Positions 711 to 8,267 are shown, counted from the stretch's first letter. The stretch is DNA of 8,267 nt from a virus (IMGVR_UViG_2582580933_000007:1-8267), one strand, 5' to 3'. The notes: generated by a model not told the origin, from the letters alone. Program-made: numbers and translations.

Positions 711-1373
711 TCAAATAAAACCAGCTGCCTTCCGGCGTTCGTATTCCTGTTTCAGCCGTTCAATTGGCGTTGGCCCTTGCGGGTGTTTCGCCCCTTCCAG
801 TTGTCGTCGCACTGGCGGAACACTCATCCCGTTACCAACATGCTTTGCCCATTTCGTCAGTTGCCGTTCCGCAAGTCGTTTTAACTCACCCTGCGTCATC
901 TGGCGCTCAATCCCTCTGGTACGCATTTCGAGGCAGATGTGGTACAGCACAGGCTGTGGCCACGGGTATTTATCACTCCCGTCGTATCGCCAGGATTCAT
1001 TGCGCCAGCGCCGGTACTCTTCCATCACTGCATCCACCGTAAGACCAAATGGATTTGCCCCACTCTCCGAAATCAGTGCAACAAACTCAGCCAGGTCCGG
1101 GGGCCACGTTTCACCCGCCCGGCAGCGGTCCATGCACCGACGGCAGATCTGCCGGATTTGCTGTTCAGTCATCGCGCCAATCTGAGCAATCCAGAGTTTC
1201 GACGGCGCAGCCCCGTTCTTCTGAGTCCAGCGGTTCGAATACACCTCCCCCATAAGCTCCCACAGCTTCCAGGCCGTTTCCGTTGCTGATAAATCCGTTT
1301 TCACGTTCCCACTGTTCGCGTGCAGCCCGGATTTCCTGAACTGCCCGTGATGCGGTGCCACCTGGTGCTGCAT
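711..1373 (-). CDS. Replication protein P-like (DnaB helicase loader, lambda P family)
   Basis: ORF-track 220-aa frame. The C-terminal two thirds resemble lambda P by eye (PPDLAEFVALI vs lambda PSPGQFVAWC; KYPWPQ vs SYPWKS; MTQGELKRLAERQLTKWAKHVGNGMSVPPVRRQL vs LTDAELRRKAADELVHMTARINRGEAIPEPVKQL, lambda segments quoted from memory). ATG at 1373 is preceded by AAGGGGG with a 6-nt spacer. Alternative start ATG 1172..1170 lies in an ATGACTGA junction with the upstream gene stop and would give 153 aa. Confidence 0.6.
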   Translation of the reverse strand: MQHQVAPHHGQFRKSGLHANSGNVKTDLSATETAWKLWELMGEVYSNRWTQKNGAAPSKLWIAQIGAMTEQQIRQICRRCMDRCRAGETWPPDLAEFVALISESGANPFGLTVDAVMEEYRRWRNESWRYDGSDKYPWPQPVLYHICLEMRTRGIERQMTQGELKRLAERQLTKWAKHVGNGMSVPPVRRQLEGAKHPQGPTPIERLKQEYERRKAAGFI

Positions 1374-2202
1374 GGCTTACCCCCTTGCTGACTGGTTTTA
1401 CCTGTGCCCTGACGTGCTGCACGTGGCGGGCAAATTTCTGCTCCCACTGAACCTGCGTGAAAACCTTCCCCTCCGCCATCCAGTAATCCCGGAATGCGGC
1501 AAGCTCAGCAGGTGTAAACTCAGGCTCAGGCAGAGCCATACCCCACACTGCTGCCCGCTGTCGAAAATCCGGCGACGGTTGCCAGACTCCAGTCATCGGA
1601 AATTTCCCGATCGGTTCGCTCAGGCCGTCCAGGTATTCAGGTTCGGCTGTCTGCAACGACGCGTCATTCAACTCACCGGTCGTAGCACTCTCGCGCATGC
1701 GCGCGTTATGTGTGGGGTTTAATTCTTTATCTGTATCTGTATCTGTCGTGATTTGTCGTGACATATGCGTGACGCGTCGTGACTCATCGTGACAATCAGT
1801 GTTCTGCTTCCGCAGTCTTTCCCGCTCCCGCTGCGCTCTCTTGCGCTCTGCCGGGGATTTTGCGGTTTGCGAAACATTACCGTTATCCTCCTTCATCACC
1901 TGGCGTTTTTCCCATCCGGAAATAAGATCACCATCCAGAACTCGCCCCTGCATTGCATGCAAAATTGAATCAATCACGTCTTCCGTCACATCAAGCGCAC
2001 TTGCTAAATCTTCCGTCGTGACATCAATGTGACCACGTAGTGACACGCCGTGACATGTCGTGACATTTCGTGACGCACTCACCAGAAGGTGGATATACAC
2101 CGCCATCACTGTTGCAATTGGCTGCCCTGACACCCTGGCAATTGTTCGCCACTTAGGGTCATTTGGCATGTCATGCCATAATCTGAGCCAAGCGTTAGCC
2201 AT
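1165..2202 (-). CDS. Phage replisome organizer / replication initiator (lambda O-like role), contains origin iterons
   Basis: ORF-track frame 1165..2208 (GTG). I prefer ATG at 2202..2200, which has SD GAGGTG upstream. N-terminus MANAWLRLWHDMPNDPKWRTIARVSGQPIATVMAVYIHLLVSAS fits the phage replisome-organizer N-terminal pattern (W-L-R-L...D-PK...I...G...VY-IHLL). Position after Cro/CII-like genes and before the P-like gene; two iteron arrays inside the gene. Confidence 0.7.
   Translation of the reverse strand: MANAWLRLWHDMPNDPKWRTIARVSGQPIATVMAVYIHLLVSASRNVTTCHGVSLRGHIDVTTEDLASALDVTEDVIDSILHAMQGRVLDGDLISGWEKRQVMKEDNGNVSQTAKSPAERKRAQRERERLRKQNTDCHDESRRVTHMSRQITTDTDTDKELNPTHNARMRESATTGELNDASLQTAEPEYLDGLSEPIGKFPMTGVWQPSPDFRQRAAVWGMALPEPEFTPAELAAFRDYWMAEGKVFTQVQWEQKFARHVQHVRAQVKPVSKGVSHAAPGGTASRAVQEIRAAREQWERENGFISNGNGLEAVGAYGGGVFEPLDSEERGCAVETLDCSDWRDD
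1728..1793. repeat. Origin-like repeat block A: 3 tandem TATCTG hexamers followed by 5 iterons (CGTGAT/CGTGAC) at 10-11 bp spacing
   Basis: TATCTG at 1728-1733, 1734-1739, 1740-1745. CGTGAT at 1747-1752; CGTGAC at 1757-1762, 1768-1773, 1778-1783, 1788-1793. Helical-turn periodicity inside the organizer gene, analogous to ori-lambda inside O. Confidence 0.55.
2017..2074. repeat. Origin-like repeat block B: 6 iterons (C/T/A)GTGAC at 10-11 bp spacing
   Basis: GTGAC cores beginning at 2017 (CGTGAC), 2028 (TGTGAC), 2039 (AGTGAC), 2049, 2059, 2069 (CGTGAC); same orientation and period as block A, about 225 bp away, in the N-terminal coding part of the organizer gene. Confidence 0.55.
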
Positions 2203-2998: not shown

Positions 2999-3095
2999 AC
3001 CTTCCTCGGTTTAGTGTTTTCTTGCGAGTTTAGTGTTTAATAAACCATTAAGTCAAGTATTTGCTTGTTTAGTGATTACTAAAGATAATTACCAC
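2999..3095. promoter_or_regulatory. OR-like divergent promoter/operator region between the Cro-like (minus) and repressor (plus) genes
   Basis: Three direct copies of GTTTAGTG (3009-3016, 3028-3035, 3067-3074). Imperfect palindrome GTTTA-A-TAAAC at 3035-3045. Minus-strand promoter candidate: -35 TTGACT (revcomp of 3051-3056), 18-bp spacer, -10 TAAACT (revcomp of 3027-3032). Plus-strand promoter candidate: -35 TTGCTT (3061-3066), 17-bp spacer, -10 GATAAT (3084-3089), which would put the transcription start at or next to the repressor ATG at 3096. Confidence 0.55.
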
Positions 3096-3467
3096 ATGCA
3101 GAAAAAAGAAATTCGCCGTTTACGTCTCAAGGAGTGGTTTAAAGATAAAACTCTGCCACCCAAAGAGAAGAGCTACCTATCTCAACTAATGAGTGGGAGG
3201 GCCTCGTTTGGAGAAAAGGCTGCCAGAAGAATAGAGCAAACATACGGGATGCCGGAAGGGTATCTGGATGCGGAATACGCAGAACAACCGGAGATTTCTC
3301 CACCACATGCAGGGTTAACGTCTAATCAACTGGAATTATTGCAGATTTTTTCAGCCTTCCCTGAGGATGAGCAACGCCAGATAATCAGCGAGTTAAAGCA
3401 GAAAAAAGAATCAATGGAAGATCTCATAGCGAGATGGATTGCGGCGCAAAAATGCCGCCGCGCCTAA
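3096..3467 (+). CDS. paaR2: cI/DicA-like HTH repressor; PaaR2-like regulator of the three-component TA module
   Basis: In frame with the ORF-track 3033..3467 (GTG); first ATG at 3096. N-terminal HTH_XRE-like segment KEKSYLSQLMSGRASFGEKAARRIEQTYGMPEGYLD. C-terminal LTSNQLELLQIFSAFPEDEQ resembles the DicA C-terminal motif as I recall it. No SD before the ATG, consistent with a leaderless mRNA. Sits in the cI position, divergent from the Cro-like gene and directly upstream of the antitoxin/toxin pair. Confidence 0.65.
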   Translation: MQKKEIRRLRLKEWFKDKTLPPKEKSYLSQLMSGRASFGEKAARRIEQTYGMPEGYLDAEYAEQPEISPPHAGLTSNQLELLQIFSAFPEDEQRQIISELKQKKESMEDLIARWIAAQKCRRA

Positions 3468-3487
3468 GTTATAAAACCGGAGGAAAC

Positions 3488-3679
3488 ATGAATAGAGCCC
3501 TTTCACCAATGGTTTCTGAATTTGAAACCATTGAACAAGAAAACAGTTACAACGAATGGCTGCGTGCGAAAGTAGCAACGAGCCTTGCAGATCCGCGCCC
3601 AGCAATTCCCCATGACGAAGTTGAGCGCAGAATGGCAGAACGCTTTGCTAGAATGCGCAAGGAACGGAGCAAGCAGTAA
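3488..3679 (+). CDS. paaA2: ParD-like antitoxin (PaaA2) of a ParE-family toxin
   Basis: 63-aa ORF from ATG 3488 (internal start of ORF-track 3434..3679), SD GGAGG 4 nt upstream. Sequence MNRALSPMVSEFETIEQENSYNEWLRAKVATSLADPRPAIPHDEVERRMAERFARMRKERSKQ matches my recollection of PaaA2. Stop TAA 3677-3679 is 1 nt before the toxin ATG. Confidence 0.7.
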   Translation: MNRALSPMVSEFETIEQENSYNEWLRAKVATSLADPRPAIPHDEVERRMAERFARMRKERSKQ

Positions 3680-3680
3680 A

Positions 3681-3959
3681 ATGTTACCCGTGTTATGGCT
3701 TGAAAGCGCAGATACCGACCTAGATGATATAACCAGTTATATTGCTCGTTTCGACATAGATGCGGCTGAACGCTTATGGCAGCGATTAAGGGGTTGTGTG
3801 CTGCCGTTATCCGAACATCCGTATTTATACCCACCAAGCGACAGAGTACCTGGCTTGCGTGAGATTGTGGCCCACCCTAACTATATAATTCTATACCGCG
3901 TAACAACATCAAGCGTTGAAGTAGTAAACGTGATCCACGCAAGACGCCAGTTTCCCTAA
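3681..3959 (+). CDS. parE2: ParE/RelE-family toxin (ParE2)
   Basis: 92-codon ORF from ATG 3681, in frame with ORF-track 3585..3959. Sequence MLPVLWLESADTDLDDITSYIARFDIDAAERLWQRLRGCVLPLSEHPYLYPPSDRVPGLREIVAHPNYIILYRVTTSSVEVVNVIHARRQFP carries ParE-family hallmarks (LREIV...YIILYRV...V..V.H.RR). Tightly coupled to the upstream antitoxin gene. Confidence 0.75.
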   Translation: MLPVLWLESADTDLDDITSYIARFDIDAAERLWQRLRGCVLPLSEHPYLYPPSDRVPGLREIVAHPNYIILYRVTTSSVEVVNVIHARRQFP

Positions 3960-5380: not shown

Positions 5381-5946
5381 TTCATCCTCCTGAGGGTTAG
5401 TAATTAAGGAGTTCTCCACGGGTGAGGTGGAGTGCGTGCGCCGGACACGGGTGAGCATCCGGCACTGACAGTTTACTGAAAGGATATCTCCCTGAAAAGT
5501 CAGGGCATAACGCGAAAGCGCACGGCGAAGTTGTTGGTTCATAGATAGCCTGTCGTTAAATTTTCGTCGACCGTGCGCTTCCGGTTGTGGCACTCCGCGA
5601 AATGGCGCGGCGGTAAGTATGGCGGGGTTATTCCTTCCCCGTTGAGGACACCGGGTTGTCAGGTTGACCATACGCTTAAGTGACAACCCCGCTGCAACGC
5701 CCTCTGTTATCAATTTTCTGGTGACGTTTGGCGGTATCAGTTTTACTCCGTGACTGCTCTGCCGCCCTTTTTAAAGTGAATTTTGTGATGTGGTGAATGC
5801 GGCTGAGCGCACGCGGAACAGTTAAAACCAAAAACAGTGTTATGGGTGGATTCTCTGTATCCGGCGTTAATTGTTAACTGGTTAACGTCACCTGGAGGCA
5901 CCAGGCACCGCATCAACAAAGTTCATTTGTAAAAATGGAGATAATT

Positions 5947-6291: not shown

Positions 6292-8267
6292 ATGAGTAAA
6301 GTCTTTATTTGCGCCGCCATTCCGGACGAACAGGCAATAAAGGAAGAAGGTGCAGTTGCTGTAGCCACTGCCATTGAAGCCGGTGACGAACGCCGCGCCC
6401 GTGCCAAATTTACCTGGCAATTCCTGGAGCAATATCCGGCTGCTCAGGACTGCGCTTATAAATTTCTTGTCTGCGAGGATAAACCTGGCATACCCCGCCC
6501 TGCCCTCGATTCATGGGATGCTGAATATATGCAGGAAAACCGCTGGGATGAGGAGTCTGCTTCTTTTGTCCCGGTTGAGACGGAATCCGATCCGATGAAC
6601 GTCACTTTTGACAAGCTGGCCCCTGAAGTACAGAACGCTGTCATGGTTAAGTTCGACACATGTGAAAACATCACCGTTGATATGGTTATTAGCGCACAGG
6701 AATTGTTGCAGGAAGACATGGCAACATTCGACGGACATATCGTTGAAGCGTTGATGAAAATGCCAGATGTTAACGCCATGTATCCGGAGCTTAAGCTGCA
6801 TGCCATCGGGTGGGTTAAGCATAAATGTAAGCCTGGTGCCAAATGGCCCGAAATTCAGGCAGAGATGCGCATCTGGAAAAAACGTCGCGAAGGTGAACGC
6901 AAGGAAACCGGAAAATACACGTCTGTTGTTGATCTCGCCCGCGCCAGAACCAATCAACAGCACACTGAAAATTCAACAGGAAAAATCAGCCCGGTCATTG
7001 CTGCCATTCATCGCGAATACAAGCAGACATGGAAAACACTGGATGACGAACTGGCCTACGCTCTCTGGCCTGGTGATGTGGATGCCGGAAACATTGACGG
7101 CAGCATCCATCGCTGGGCAAAAAATGAAGTTATCGACAACGACCGCGAAGACTGGAAGCGTATCTCGGCATCAATGCGCAAACAGCCTGATGCCCTTCGC
7201 TACGACCGCCAGACTATTTTTGGCCTTGTCCGTGAACGTCCGATCGACATTCACAAAGACCCTGTGGCACTGAACAAATACATTACTGAATACCTGACTA
7301 CAAAGGGCGTGTTTGAAGATGAAGGAAGAAATCAGAGCGCAACTGATACTCTCTCGTCGCCAGTACCAGAAACTGATGCAGTGGAAACGGCAATTCCGGA
7401 CAACGAAAAAACCGAATGCAAAGTGGAAGTCGAACCATCTGTAGAGCGTGAGGGGCCGTTCTACTTCCTCTTCACCGACAAGGATGGCGAAAAATACGGT
7501 CGCGCAAACAAACTTTCTGGTCTGGATAAGGCACTGGCTGCCGGGGCTACTGAAATCACCAAAGAAGAATACGTCGCCCGAAAAAATGGCACATACACAG
7601 GCTTACCGCAAAATACCAATGCCGCACAAAACTCTGAACAACCAGAGCCGGTAAAAGTTAACACGGTCGAAACAAATAAAAAAATGGAGACAGAAAATCT
7701 GCCTGATGCAGACAAAGTGCTTGCTGCATCACGTGGTGAATTTGTTGAAGGAATTAGCGACCCGAATGATCCGAAGTGGGTTGAGGGGATCCAGACTCGC
7801 GATTCTGTGTACCAGAATCAGCAAGAAATGGAACAGAACGACCAGAAAGCGGAACAAAACAGCCCGGATGCGCAACAAAACGGGCCAGAAGTGCAACAGT
7901 CAGAGCCAACAGCACAACAGGAGACTGAAAAAAGCTGCAATACTTGCGGCCGGGCTGGCGGCGGAAAATGTCCGGACTGCGGGCCTGTTATGGGTAACAC
8001 AACATATCAGGAAACATTCGATGAAGAAAATCTGGCTGAAAAAGATTCGGAGAAAATGGAAAGCACTGCGCATTCTCGTAAGGAGAGCGCTGGTGACGCT
8101 CAGCATGGCAATAGCAGTGATGAAACTGGCGAGACGGCAAATCCCCTAATTACGGTGAACAGTCATCATAAATACATATCCACCAGCAACAGAATGTGGA
8201 CTCATATGATGATCGACCTGGAAACCATGGGAAAAAATCCTGATGCCCCGATCATCTCAATAGGTGC
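6292..8267 (+). CDS. RecE-like (exodeoxyribonuclease VIII family) prophage exonuclease; 5' end complete, 3' end beyond the window
   Basis: Stop-free frame from ATG 6292 to the window edge (at least 658 codons); absent from the ORF track because it has no in-window stop; in-frame TAA at 6283-6285 just upstream. Segment DADKVLAASRGEFVEGISDPNDPKWVEGIQTRDSVYQNQ matches a RecE linker segment as I recall it. Also contains a Q/E-rich quasi-repeat, a CxxC-x7-CxxC motif (7936-7980) and MMIDLETMG (8206-8232) resembling the Exo I motif of DEDD exonucleases. The ORF-track frames 6374..6598, 6456..6842, 6511..6963, 6767..7273, 7448..7654, 7461..7715, 7706..8149, 7818..8000 and 7900..8106 are shadows of this gene. 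Confidence 0.7.
   Translation, partial: MSKVFICAAIPDEQAIKEEGAVAVATAIEAGDERRARAKFTWQFLEQYPAAQDCAYKFLVCEDKPGIPRPALDSWDAEYMQENRWDEESASFVPVETESDPMNVTFDKLAPEVQNAVMVKFDTCENITVDMVISAQELLQEDMATFDGHIVEALMKMPDVNAMYPELKLHAIGWVKHKCKPGAKWPEIQAEMRIWKKRREGERKETGKYTSVVDLARARTNQQHTENSTGKISPVIAAIHREYKQTWKTLDDELAYALWPGDVDAGNIDGSIHRWAKNEVIDNDREDWKRISASMRKQPDALRYDRQTIFGLVRERPIDIHKDPVALNKYITEYLTTKGVFEDEGRNQSATDTLSSPVPETDAVETAIPDNEKTECKVEVEPSVEREGPFYFLFTDKDGEKYGRANKLSGLDKALAAGATEITKEEYVARKNGTYTGLPQNTNAAQNSEQPEPVKVNTVETNKKMETENLPDADKVLAASRGEFVEGISDPNDPKWVEGIQTRDSVYQNQQEMEQNDQKAEQNSPDAQQNGPEVQQSEPTAQQETEKSCNTCGRAGGGKCPDCGPVMGNTTYQETFDEENLAEKDSEKMESTAHSRKESAGDAQHGNSSDETGETANPLITVNSHHKYISTSNRMWTHMMIDLETMGKNPDAPIISIG

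Follow-up and report, generated by a model that had tools for sequence, protein, structure and literature searches.

An origin of replication that lies within the gene of its own initiator is textbook for bacteriophages lambda and SPP1. The iterons of lambda are about 19 bp long, have internal dyad symmetry and are bound by dimers of the O protein. In iteron plasmids (P1 with incC and incA, F and RK2) and in Vibrio chromosome II, pairing or looping between arrays is established, and phage P4 requires two clusters of one short repeat, ori and crr, which lie apart and are both bound by its initiator. The winged-helix domains of PhoB/OmpR bind head-to-tail direct repeats spaced 10-11 bp. In lambda and in Shiga toxin (Stx) phages, the origin is located in the O gene, and the O protein becomes longer with additional iterons, by 13 aa in Stx O (PMC7466680). 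In SPP1, oriL is located within gene 38 and a second site for gp38 is present at oriR (PMC5737612, PMC6316719); gp38 bound at oriR was proposed to stall forks as a roadblock in a theta-to-sigma switch (PMC6316719). Here, we analyzed an 8,267-nt stretch of viral DNA (IMGVR_UViG_2582580933_000007:1-8267), the whole of which is called the window, and describe two arrays of a short repeat inside the gene of an O-like replication initiator. Judging from sequence comparison, they probably belong to one lambda-style vegetative origin of a lambdoid prophage, made up of array A with an unwinding tract and of an auxiliary, co-evolving array B.

This locus resembles those of lambda and the Stx phages 933W and P27 (six iterons) in several respects. 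Array A lies in DNA coding for the linker between the N-terminal domain and the presumed loader-binding C-terminal part, the iterons are followed by an A/T-rich tract (true of array A and not of array B), and a P-type loader is encoded by the next gene. The N-terminal domain and the iterons are swapped as one specificity module, and extra iterons lengthen the initiator as in Stx O, here by 7 aa. Unlike lambda O, the initiator has no match to PF04492 (Phage_rep_O) and has a DnaT-like C-terminus; unlike the single block of 4-6 iterons in lambda, direct repeats of 10-11 bp occur in two blocks, the second of which is in the region coding for the putative DNA-binding domain.

The arrangement is analogous to that of SPP1, where the non-AAA+ replisome organizer G38P has its origin, consisting of direct repeats and an A/T-rich DNA unwinding element, in its own gene and additionally binds sites located elsewhere (PMC5737612, PMC6316719); the putative organizer here has a candidate origin of this kind in its gene and a further array to which it is predicted to bind. 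SPP1 oriR is intergenic, kilobases away and has its own A/T-rich tract, whereas the second array here is 224 bp away in the same gene and has no such tract. The C-terminal domain and the loader also differ from those of SPP1, and the match to PF09681 (N-terminal phage replisome organiser) is below threshold. As in iteron plasmids, two arrays of the same repeat are found near the rep gene, one adjoining an unwinding element and the other potentially able to modulate initiation; however, the plasmid arrays are intergenic, with units of 17-22 bp and unrelated Rep proteins. P4 and PhoB/OmpR serve only as analogies, the former for an origin in two parts and the latter for the binding of one subunit at each helical turn: the proteins are unrelated, the P4 clusters are kilobases apart and PhoB/OmpR are transcription factors. 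We found no description in the literature of the origin of this initiator family, of its very short one-turn units or, above all, of a second co-evolving array inside the coding sequence of a DNA-binding domain.

Two phased repeat arrays within the initiator gene

The O-like initiator gene spans 1165-2208 on the minus strand and encodes 347 aa from a GTG codon, with a MANAW... start at 2202. The product is laid out as a predicted N-terminal winged-helix-like domain, a disordered linker and a C-terminal DnaT-like single-stranded DNA (ssDNA)-binding domain. On the gene strand, the repeat unit is (T)GTCACG, an asymmetric core of 6-7 bp that is arranged in direct repeats. Array A (1747-1793, minus strand) consists of five GTCACG units, the last of which is degenerate (ATCACG), at spacings of 10, 10, 11 and 10 bp; on the plus strand, its units start at 1747 (CGTGAT), 1757, 1768, 1778 and 1788. 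Array B (2017-2074, minus strand) consists of six GTCAC(G) units at spacings of 10, 10, 10, 11 and 11 bp, with plus-strand starts at 2017, 2028 (TGTGAC), 2039 (AGTGAC), 2049, 2059 and 2069. The two arrays have the same orientation and are separated by 224 bp (1793 to 2017). Part of the disordered interdomain linker is encoded by array A (CHDESRRVTHMSRQIT); array B (SRNVTTCHGVSLRGHIDVT) encodes, in the N-terminal domain, the last part of helix 3 and the loop that leads into the helix-turn-helix. A preliminary description of this DNA had reported two phased, equally oriented blocks within O-like coding sequence, and our analysis confirmed their positions, spacing and location in the gene.

Exact CGTGAC was found 10 times in the window against 3.2 expected, and 8 of the 10 copies were within the two blocks, all on the plus strand. 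Tandem Repeats Finder (TRF) detected period-10 arrays at 1756-1793 and 2040-2074. Chains of copies spaced at 10-11 bp reached six for GTGAC and five for CGTGA. Shuffling the window 1000 times with preserved dinucleotides gave, over all 5-mers, a longest chain of two in 961 shuffles and of three in 39, and never a longer one. The arrays are far beyond chance.

A period of 10-11 bp shifts the reading frame from one unit to the next, and the core is accordingly translated in each of the three frames, as TCA-CG (S-R), GTC-ACG (V-T) and xGT-CAC (C-H or G-H), without giving a periodic peptide. The preliminary description had derived a TDTDTD peptide from these repeats; this peptide is instead encoded by the TATCTG hexamers beside array A.

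These hexamers are part of an A/T-rich tract (1710-1746, minus strand), which directly follows array A in gene orientation, consists of (ACAGAT)x3 and then AAAGAATTAAAC, and encodes TDTDTDKELN. TRF reported TCTGTA x3.8 at 1724-1746, and the lowest GC content of the region (0.30, at 1720-1749) adjoins array A, in agreement with the AT-rich stretch and hexamers described there earlier. Around array B, the GC content is 0.43-0.57 and no A/T-rich tract adjoins it. The tract at 1710-1746 is a candidate DNA unwinding element. Just past it lies a 12-bp perfect GC palindrome, CGCGCATGCGCG (1692-1703), which may mark the outer limit of the origin. The flanking AAACCCCACACATA and the GC-rich CGCGCG element that follows it are common to relatives, including phage TL-2011b of the GTAACG type; the exact palindrome CGCGCATGCGCG is not intact in all relatives.

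Array B contains a 21-nt in-frame insertion (2038-2058, minus strand), which adds the 7 aa TCHGVSL compared with four-unit relatives. It was defined by protein and DNA alignments with phage Evi, pAEv1818, phi1 and 20+ genomes, and amounts to exactly two iteron units, or two helical turns. Beyond what had been described before, we found a single conserved inverted copy of the core (1985-1989, plus strand), which reads GTGAC on the gene strand. It lies ~28 bp downstream from array B, within GAT GTG ACN (D-V-T), in the turn of the helix-turn-helix.

Other elements of the region were also inspected. Between the arrays, the interval 1823-1849 has three copies of CGCTC spaced by 10 bp and two of TGCGCTCT with the same spacing; this DNA encodes a basic RERERLRK helix, and the repeats are possibly due to chance. 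Terminator-like stems at 1689-1717 are on the plus strand, antisense to the operon, and coincide with the GC palindrome, and they were not treated as terminators. An explanation by RNA or hairpin structure was dropped, as single-strand folding of the array A region gave z = -0.47 and no structure. An Rfam scan of the window gave no match at the origin locus (DicF was matched elsewhere only). No DnaA boxes were present in the origin region, and their count was not above chance.

Conservation, co-variation and codon usage of the arrays

To compare the arrays among homologues, we used 38 genomic loci from species representatives, with N-terminal domain identities of 46-91%, together with annotated phages; individual loci and contigs are cited by L numbers. 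Near-identical E. coli viral contigs were used for copy-number counts, and a separate diverse viral set for divergence. About 30 homologues keep GTCAC at gene nt ~129, 139, 149 and 160 and again at ~387-420. The host genera with both arrays are Escherichia, Shigella, Aeromonas, Pseudomonas, Bordetella, Serratia, Rahnella, Aquitalea, Chromobacterium, Acidovorax, Gilvimarinus, Castellaniella, Entomomonas and others. Array A is present in all GTCAC-type homologues, array B has four units in most, and the inverted GTGAC at gene nt ~193 is found in nearly all. Since it is kept in about 30 homologues across genera, the two-array layout is an old trait of the family and not a local accident. Within E. 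coli, close relatives of the initiator module, ~96% identical over the stretch compared, are present in O157:H7 genomes, and some part of this stretch matches 2564 of the 5426 complete genomes searched.

The two halves of the initiator have different relatives. For the N-terminal half (aa 1-153), these are phage Evi (86%), Pseudomonas phi1 (61%) and Aeromonas pAEv1818 (56%), and for the C-terminal half (aa 150-347), Rac-SA53 YdaU and PPompW (~80%). Homology among E. coli sequences breaks at window position ~1724-1728, inside the A/T tract, with the mosaic joint at aa ~150-160. On these alignments, the A/T tract is the recombination joint of the N- and C-terminal modules.

The number of repeat units also varies. 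The array B loop carries an insertion of 7 aa (21 nt, two units) here and in E. albertii, of 7 aa in L025-L027, of 15 aa in L037 and of 23 aa in L030, and a six-unit array B is also present in E. albertii L005 and many viral contigs. In close relatives (viral contigs L043-L122), array A has 4-6 exact units and the ACAGAT(A/C) hexamers number ~3-5. As both the array A units and the hexamers of the A-rich tract differ in number among close relatives, both appear to expand and contract in-frame. In Pseudomonas sp. JAI111 (L030; gene nt ~150-215), the 23-aa insertion brings in additional direct GTCACG units together with three inverted GTGAC units at 9-bp spacing, an exceptionally complex form of array B. 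A strictly fixed distance or phase between the arrays was rejected, given the different distances in L019 and L030 and the longer array B insertions of L030 and L037. In L039 and L041, an inserted segment (gene nt ~376-570; peptide YVYYV...GIS.NPWAR) replaces the linker and array A, and it looks like a GIY-YIG-type sequence.

We further examined whether the core is the same in both arrays. TL-2011b, L025, L027, L036 and L037 have a GTAACG core in both arrays, and L031, L033, L035 and L040 have CGAACGC in both. Among genes with at least two copies in each array, the dominant core of array B was identical to that of array A in 36 of 36 (28 GTCAC, 4 GTAAC and 4 GAACG). When the motif was picked from array B alone in 63 non-redundant genes, including the diverse viral set, the density of this 5-mer in the array A region (2.06 per 100 nt) was 16 times that in the remainder of the gene (0.125 per 100 nt). 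The flanking consensus also agreed between the arrays, as tGTCACG, GTAACG and CGAACGC: in the GTCAC type, G was found at +6 in 82% and 90%, and in the GAACG type, C was found at -1 and +6 in 80-94%. All three cores contain a constant ACG, around which they differ by single steps.

Codon usage was compared in 24 GTCAC-type homologues with a mean pairwise amino acid identity of 63% (minimum 53%) and a gene GC content of 42-69%. At degenerate conserved columns, the frequency of the top codon was 0.91 inside the arrays vs 0.53 outside (Mann-Whitney p ~1e-6), and at 4/6-fold degenerate residues only, it was 0.90 vs 0.43 (p ~8e-6). Relatedness cancels out in this test, because the columns inside and outside share the same tree. 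In array B, the codons were Ser TCA in 96% and Val GTC, Thr ACG, Gly GGT and His CAC in 100%, and in array A, the codons TGT, CAC, TCA and GTC were all 100% fixed. The Val codon of the inverted copy was GTG in 22 of 22, and the GAT and AAA codons of the A/T tract were 90-100% fixed, also in hosts of high GC content. For invariant residues outside the arrays, the top codon typically accounted for 25-60%, and third positions in the spacers within the arrays were free (e.g., Arg57, 0.42). The preliminary description had proposed weighing conservation against synonymous drift, and the outcome favors function in the DNA: the arrays are kept in homologues of many genera, and codons are frozen only inside the motif. 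These results indicate that both arrays are under DNA-level selection. Between iteron types, no part of the domain varies more than the array B loop, and the remainder is nearly constant. Because the loop varies in this way and accepts in-frame insertions, its type-invariant V, T, G and H probably reflect a constraint on DNA and not on the protein.

Candidate reader of the arrays and proposed role of array B

To characterize the initiator, we searched its sequence and predicted structure against domain and structure databases. A Pfam scan of the whole protein matched only PF17948 (DnaT; aa 203-269, E 1.4e-17), with no match to PF04492, and the initiator is not a lambda O homologue. It falls in PHROG 1408/3729, "replication initiation protein", and is also matched by the PHROG replisome-organizer families 4880 and 5968 (6e-5 and 9e-4). 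NCBIfam gave a sub-threshold DnaT match only. Close homologues are called "phage replisome organizer" by NCBI, and the O157 homologue is named a DnaT-like ssDNA-binding domain protein by the Prokaryotic Genome Annotation Pipeline (PGAP). The N-terminus matched PF09681 weakly (E 0.0087; 16.5 bits, below the cut-off of 23.3) over profile positions 1-116 of 121. The AlphaFold2 (AF2) model had a mean predicted local distance difference test (pLDDT) score of 69, with >90 for most of residues 11-40 and 61-90. It contains three helices, a loop at 46-62 (pLDDT 63-70), a helix-turn-helix at 63-84 and a beta wing, and the interdomain linker scored <50. Foldseek against the PDB returned weak winged-helix matches only (CRP, MepR, GntR and the plasmid initiator 4pta; all E >0.2), which support a winged-helix-like fold and no family assignment. 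A PDB sequence search with the N-terminal domain gave no match even at E = 10.

We infer the identity of the binding protein, the opening at the A/T tract and the role of array B as follows. The N-terminal winged-helix-like domain would recognize the 6-7 bp core (T)GTCACG, and cores placed head-to-tail once per helical turn would align the bound subunits on one face of the DNA. Initiator subunits would bind array A, one per turn, and the duplex would open at the conserved A/T-rich tract adjoining it. Delivery of the host DnaB helicase would then fall to the DnaT-like C-terminal part of the initiator and the P-like loader. The same protein would also bind array B, which lies 224 bp upstream and comprises six units here (four in most relatives) and one inverted copy. 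Most likely array B is auxiliary, pairing with array A by looping, which would raise local initiator occupancy and give an O-some-like complex. The candidate origin proposed in the preliminary description is thus supported by the conservation and co-variation of both arrays, by an initiator accompanied by a P-like loader, and by the A/T tract at array A.

Several observations weigh against this proposal. As the homologues are related, the 36 concordant genes represent perhaps 3-5 independent switches of the core. The subclade of L032, L034 and L038 shows no clear array B, and neither array is present in the Serratia and Pantoea loci L039 and L041; array B is thus dispensable in some members. 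The units of 10-11 bp are much shorter than classical iterons of 17-22 bp, and the A/T tract is short here (~35 bp). Searches of Pfam, the PDB and Foldseek gave no significant assignment for the N-terminal domain, so its predicted DNA-binding role rests on the moderate AF2 model and the weak winged-helix matches. We found no literature description of this family, its arrays, its binding or origin activity, or GTCACG iterons, and mentions of Rac oriJ in the literature gave no sequence detail.

The alternative that survives best is a negative or regulatory array B, which might block pR transcription in an autoregulatory manner, handcuff sister origins in the way of plasmid control iterons, or stall forks for a theta-to-sigma switch. 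We regard it as a real but clearly less probable possibility. The sequence is as compatible with such a role as with a positive one. In its favor, no A/T-rich tract is present at array B, which sits early in the initiator's own coding sequence, downstream of a candidate pR-like promoter. Its copy number varies among relatives (4 or 6 units, and larger insertions), it is missing in one subclade, as expected of a modulatory element, and a second initiator site acting as a roadblock has a precedent in SPP1 (PMC6316719). Positive and negative roles are not separable by sequence; however, the shared orientation of the arrays and the integral two-turn insertion suit cooperative assembly at least as well.

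Binding of the arrays by another protein, either a host factor or a phage regulator (Cro/YdaS-like or cII/YdaT-like), seems very unlikely to us. The upstream regulators are indeed close by, but the motif varies among phages of one host (GTCACG here and GTAACG in E. coli phage TL-2011b) and is constant across hosts from Entomomonas to Bordetella. Both of these facts speak against a host factor. The downstream partners vary (lambda-P-like, IstB/DnaC-like, primase-helicase and others), as do the C-terminal halves and the upstream regulators, and the arrays stay. Their only constant, always co-inherited companion is the N-terminal domain, which houses array B. Together with the mosaic joint and the co-variation of the core with the lineage of the N-terminal domain, this variation identifies the N-terminal domain and the iterons as one specificity unit, distinct from the module of C-terminal part and loader. 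The most economical candidate for the reader is the N-terminal domain of the initiator.

Two separate or duplicated origins, each array firing alone, are highly improbable. The preliminary description had left open whether the two blocks were two initiator-binding arrays or a duplicated origin. Both arrays do share motif, orientation and phasing, as a duplication would predict. However, the conserved A/T-rich tract follows array A only, which makes a duplicated origin unlikely, and the pair is kept as a unit over deep divergence, hence not a recent duplication. Of the two options, a pair of initiator-binding arrays inherited as a module fits better. Finally, the repeats could be a by-product of peptide selection or slippage with no function in the DNA, as V, T, G and H of array B are invariant within the GTCAC type and tandem repeats do expand by slippage, but this is barely credible, since synonymous codons are fixed only in the core and drift at other invariant residues, the core is read in three frames and recurs in the disordered linker, and the loop peptide is wholly different in the GTAACG and CGAACGC types in an otherwise conserved domain.

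Genomic setting and implications

Open reading frames (ORFs), Pfam and PHROG matches identified the window as the immunity and early-right region of a lambdoid prophage, with the early operon on the minus strand in the order cro / cII / O / P-like. The operon contains a Cro/YdaS-like gene (2696-2998), a cII/YdaT-like gene (2274-2699), the initiator gene, a lambda-P-like helicase loader within 711-1373 (PF06992, E 5.7e-16; PHROG 109) and, listed last, a DUF1627 gene, all on the minus strand. The P-like loader is likely the partner recruited by the C-terminal part of the initiator. A consensus scan placed the pR-like promoter candidate at 3027-3056 (minus strand; 9/12 matches). It might, as a weak prediction, drive the cro/YdaS-like, cII/YdaT-like, O-like and P-like genes, with transcription passing through both arrays.

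In the O157 relative, PGAP annotates a P protein of 153 aa with an 8-nt overlap with the O stop. The P-like frame (711-1373, minus strand) is open for ~200 nt 5' of the PGAP start used there, and the P homology starts in this upstream part already, at aa 55 (Pfam) and aa 20 (PHROG) of the long ORF. PHROG 15931 is a 482-aa O-P fusion. The 3' end of O and the 5' end of P could represent a two-frame overlap or frameshift variants.

Outside the early operon, the DicF antisense small RNA was found at 5716-5767 on the plus strand (Rfam RF00039, 76.7 bits, full length), and dicB is present in the immunity-side flank of a close O157 relative. With DicF here and dicB in that flank, the region is a Qin/Kim-like dicB-dicF prophage region. 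Opposite the early operon, at 3096-3959 on the plus strand, lies a three-gene toxin-antitoxin-like module consisting of a regulator-like ORF (3096-3467; PHROG transcriptional regulator), a PaaA2-type antitoxin (3488-3679; PF21217, 1e-19) and a ParE toxin (3681-3959; PF05016, 2e-16). We take this module to resemble paaR2-paaA2-parE2 of E. coli O157:H7 prophages. An imperfect 21-nt tandem repeat (7832-7898, plus strand; 3.2 copies, 74% matches) encodes a Q/E/N-rich repeat in a large ORF that runs from 6292 to the window end. At its C-terminal end, this ORF starts a 3'-5' exoribonuclease-like domain (weak match).

In prophages of enterohaemorrhagic E. coli, the analysis locates the likely replication origin. 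More distant relatives are present in prophages across Gamma- and Betaproteobacteria, and the origin of this initiator module appears to be undescribed. The three iteron cores, each with its own N-terminal domain, form a ready-made specificity series, which may be used to study the evolution of initiator-origin recognition and how the coding sequence of a folded DNA-binding domain can house an array of binding sites. The series also supplies candidate orthogonal origin-initiator pairs. In a bolder and rather doubtful version, array B would be self-referential, being both a set of sites and the coding sequence of the surface loop, beside the helix-turn-helix, that helps to read them or, more modestly, the two arrays would form an obligatorily looped origin in a widespread proteobacterial prophage family, an arrangement not known from phage initiators. 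A self-referential array B would explain why both arrays and the protein switch specificity jointly: a change of the core (GTCACG to GTAACG to CGAACGC) would alter the target and, at the same time, the part of the protein that reads it.

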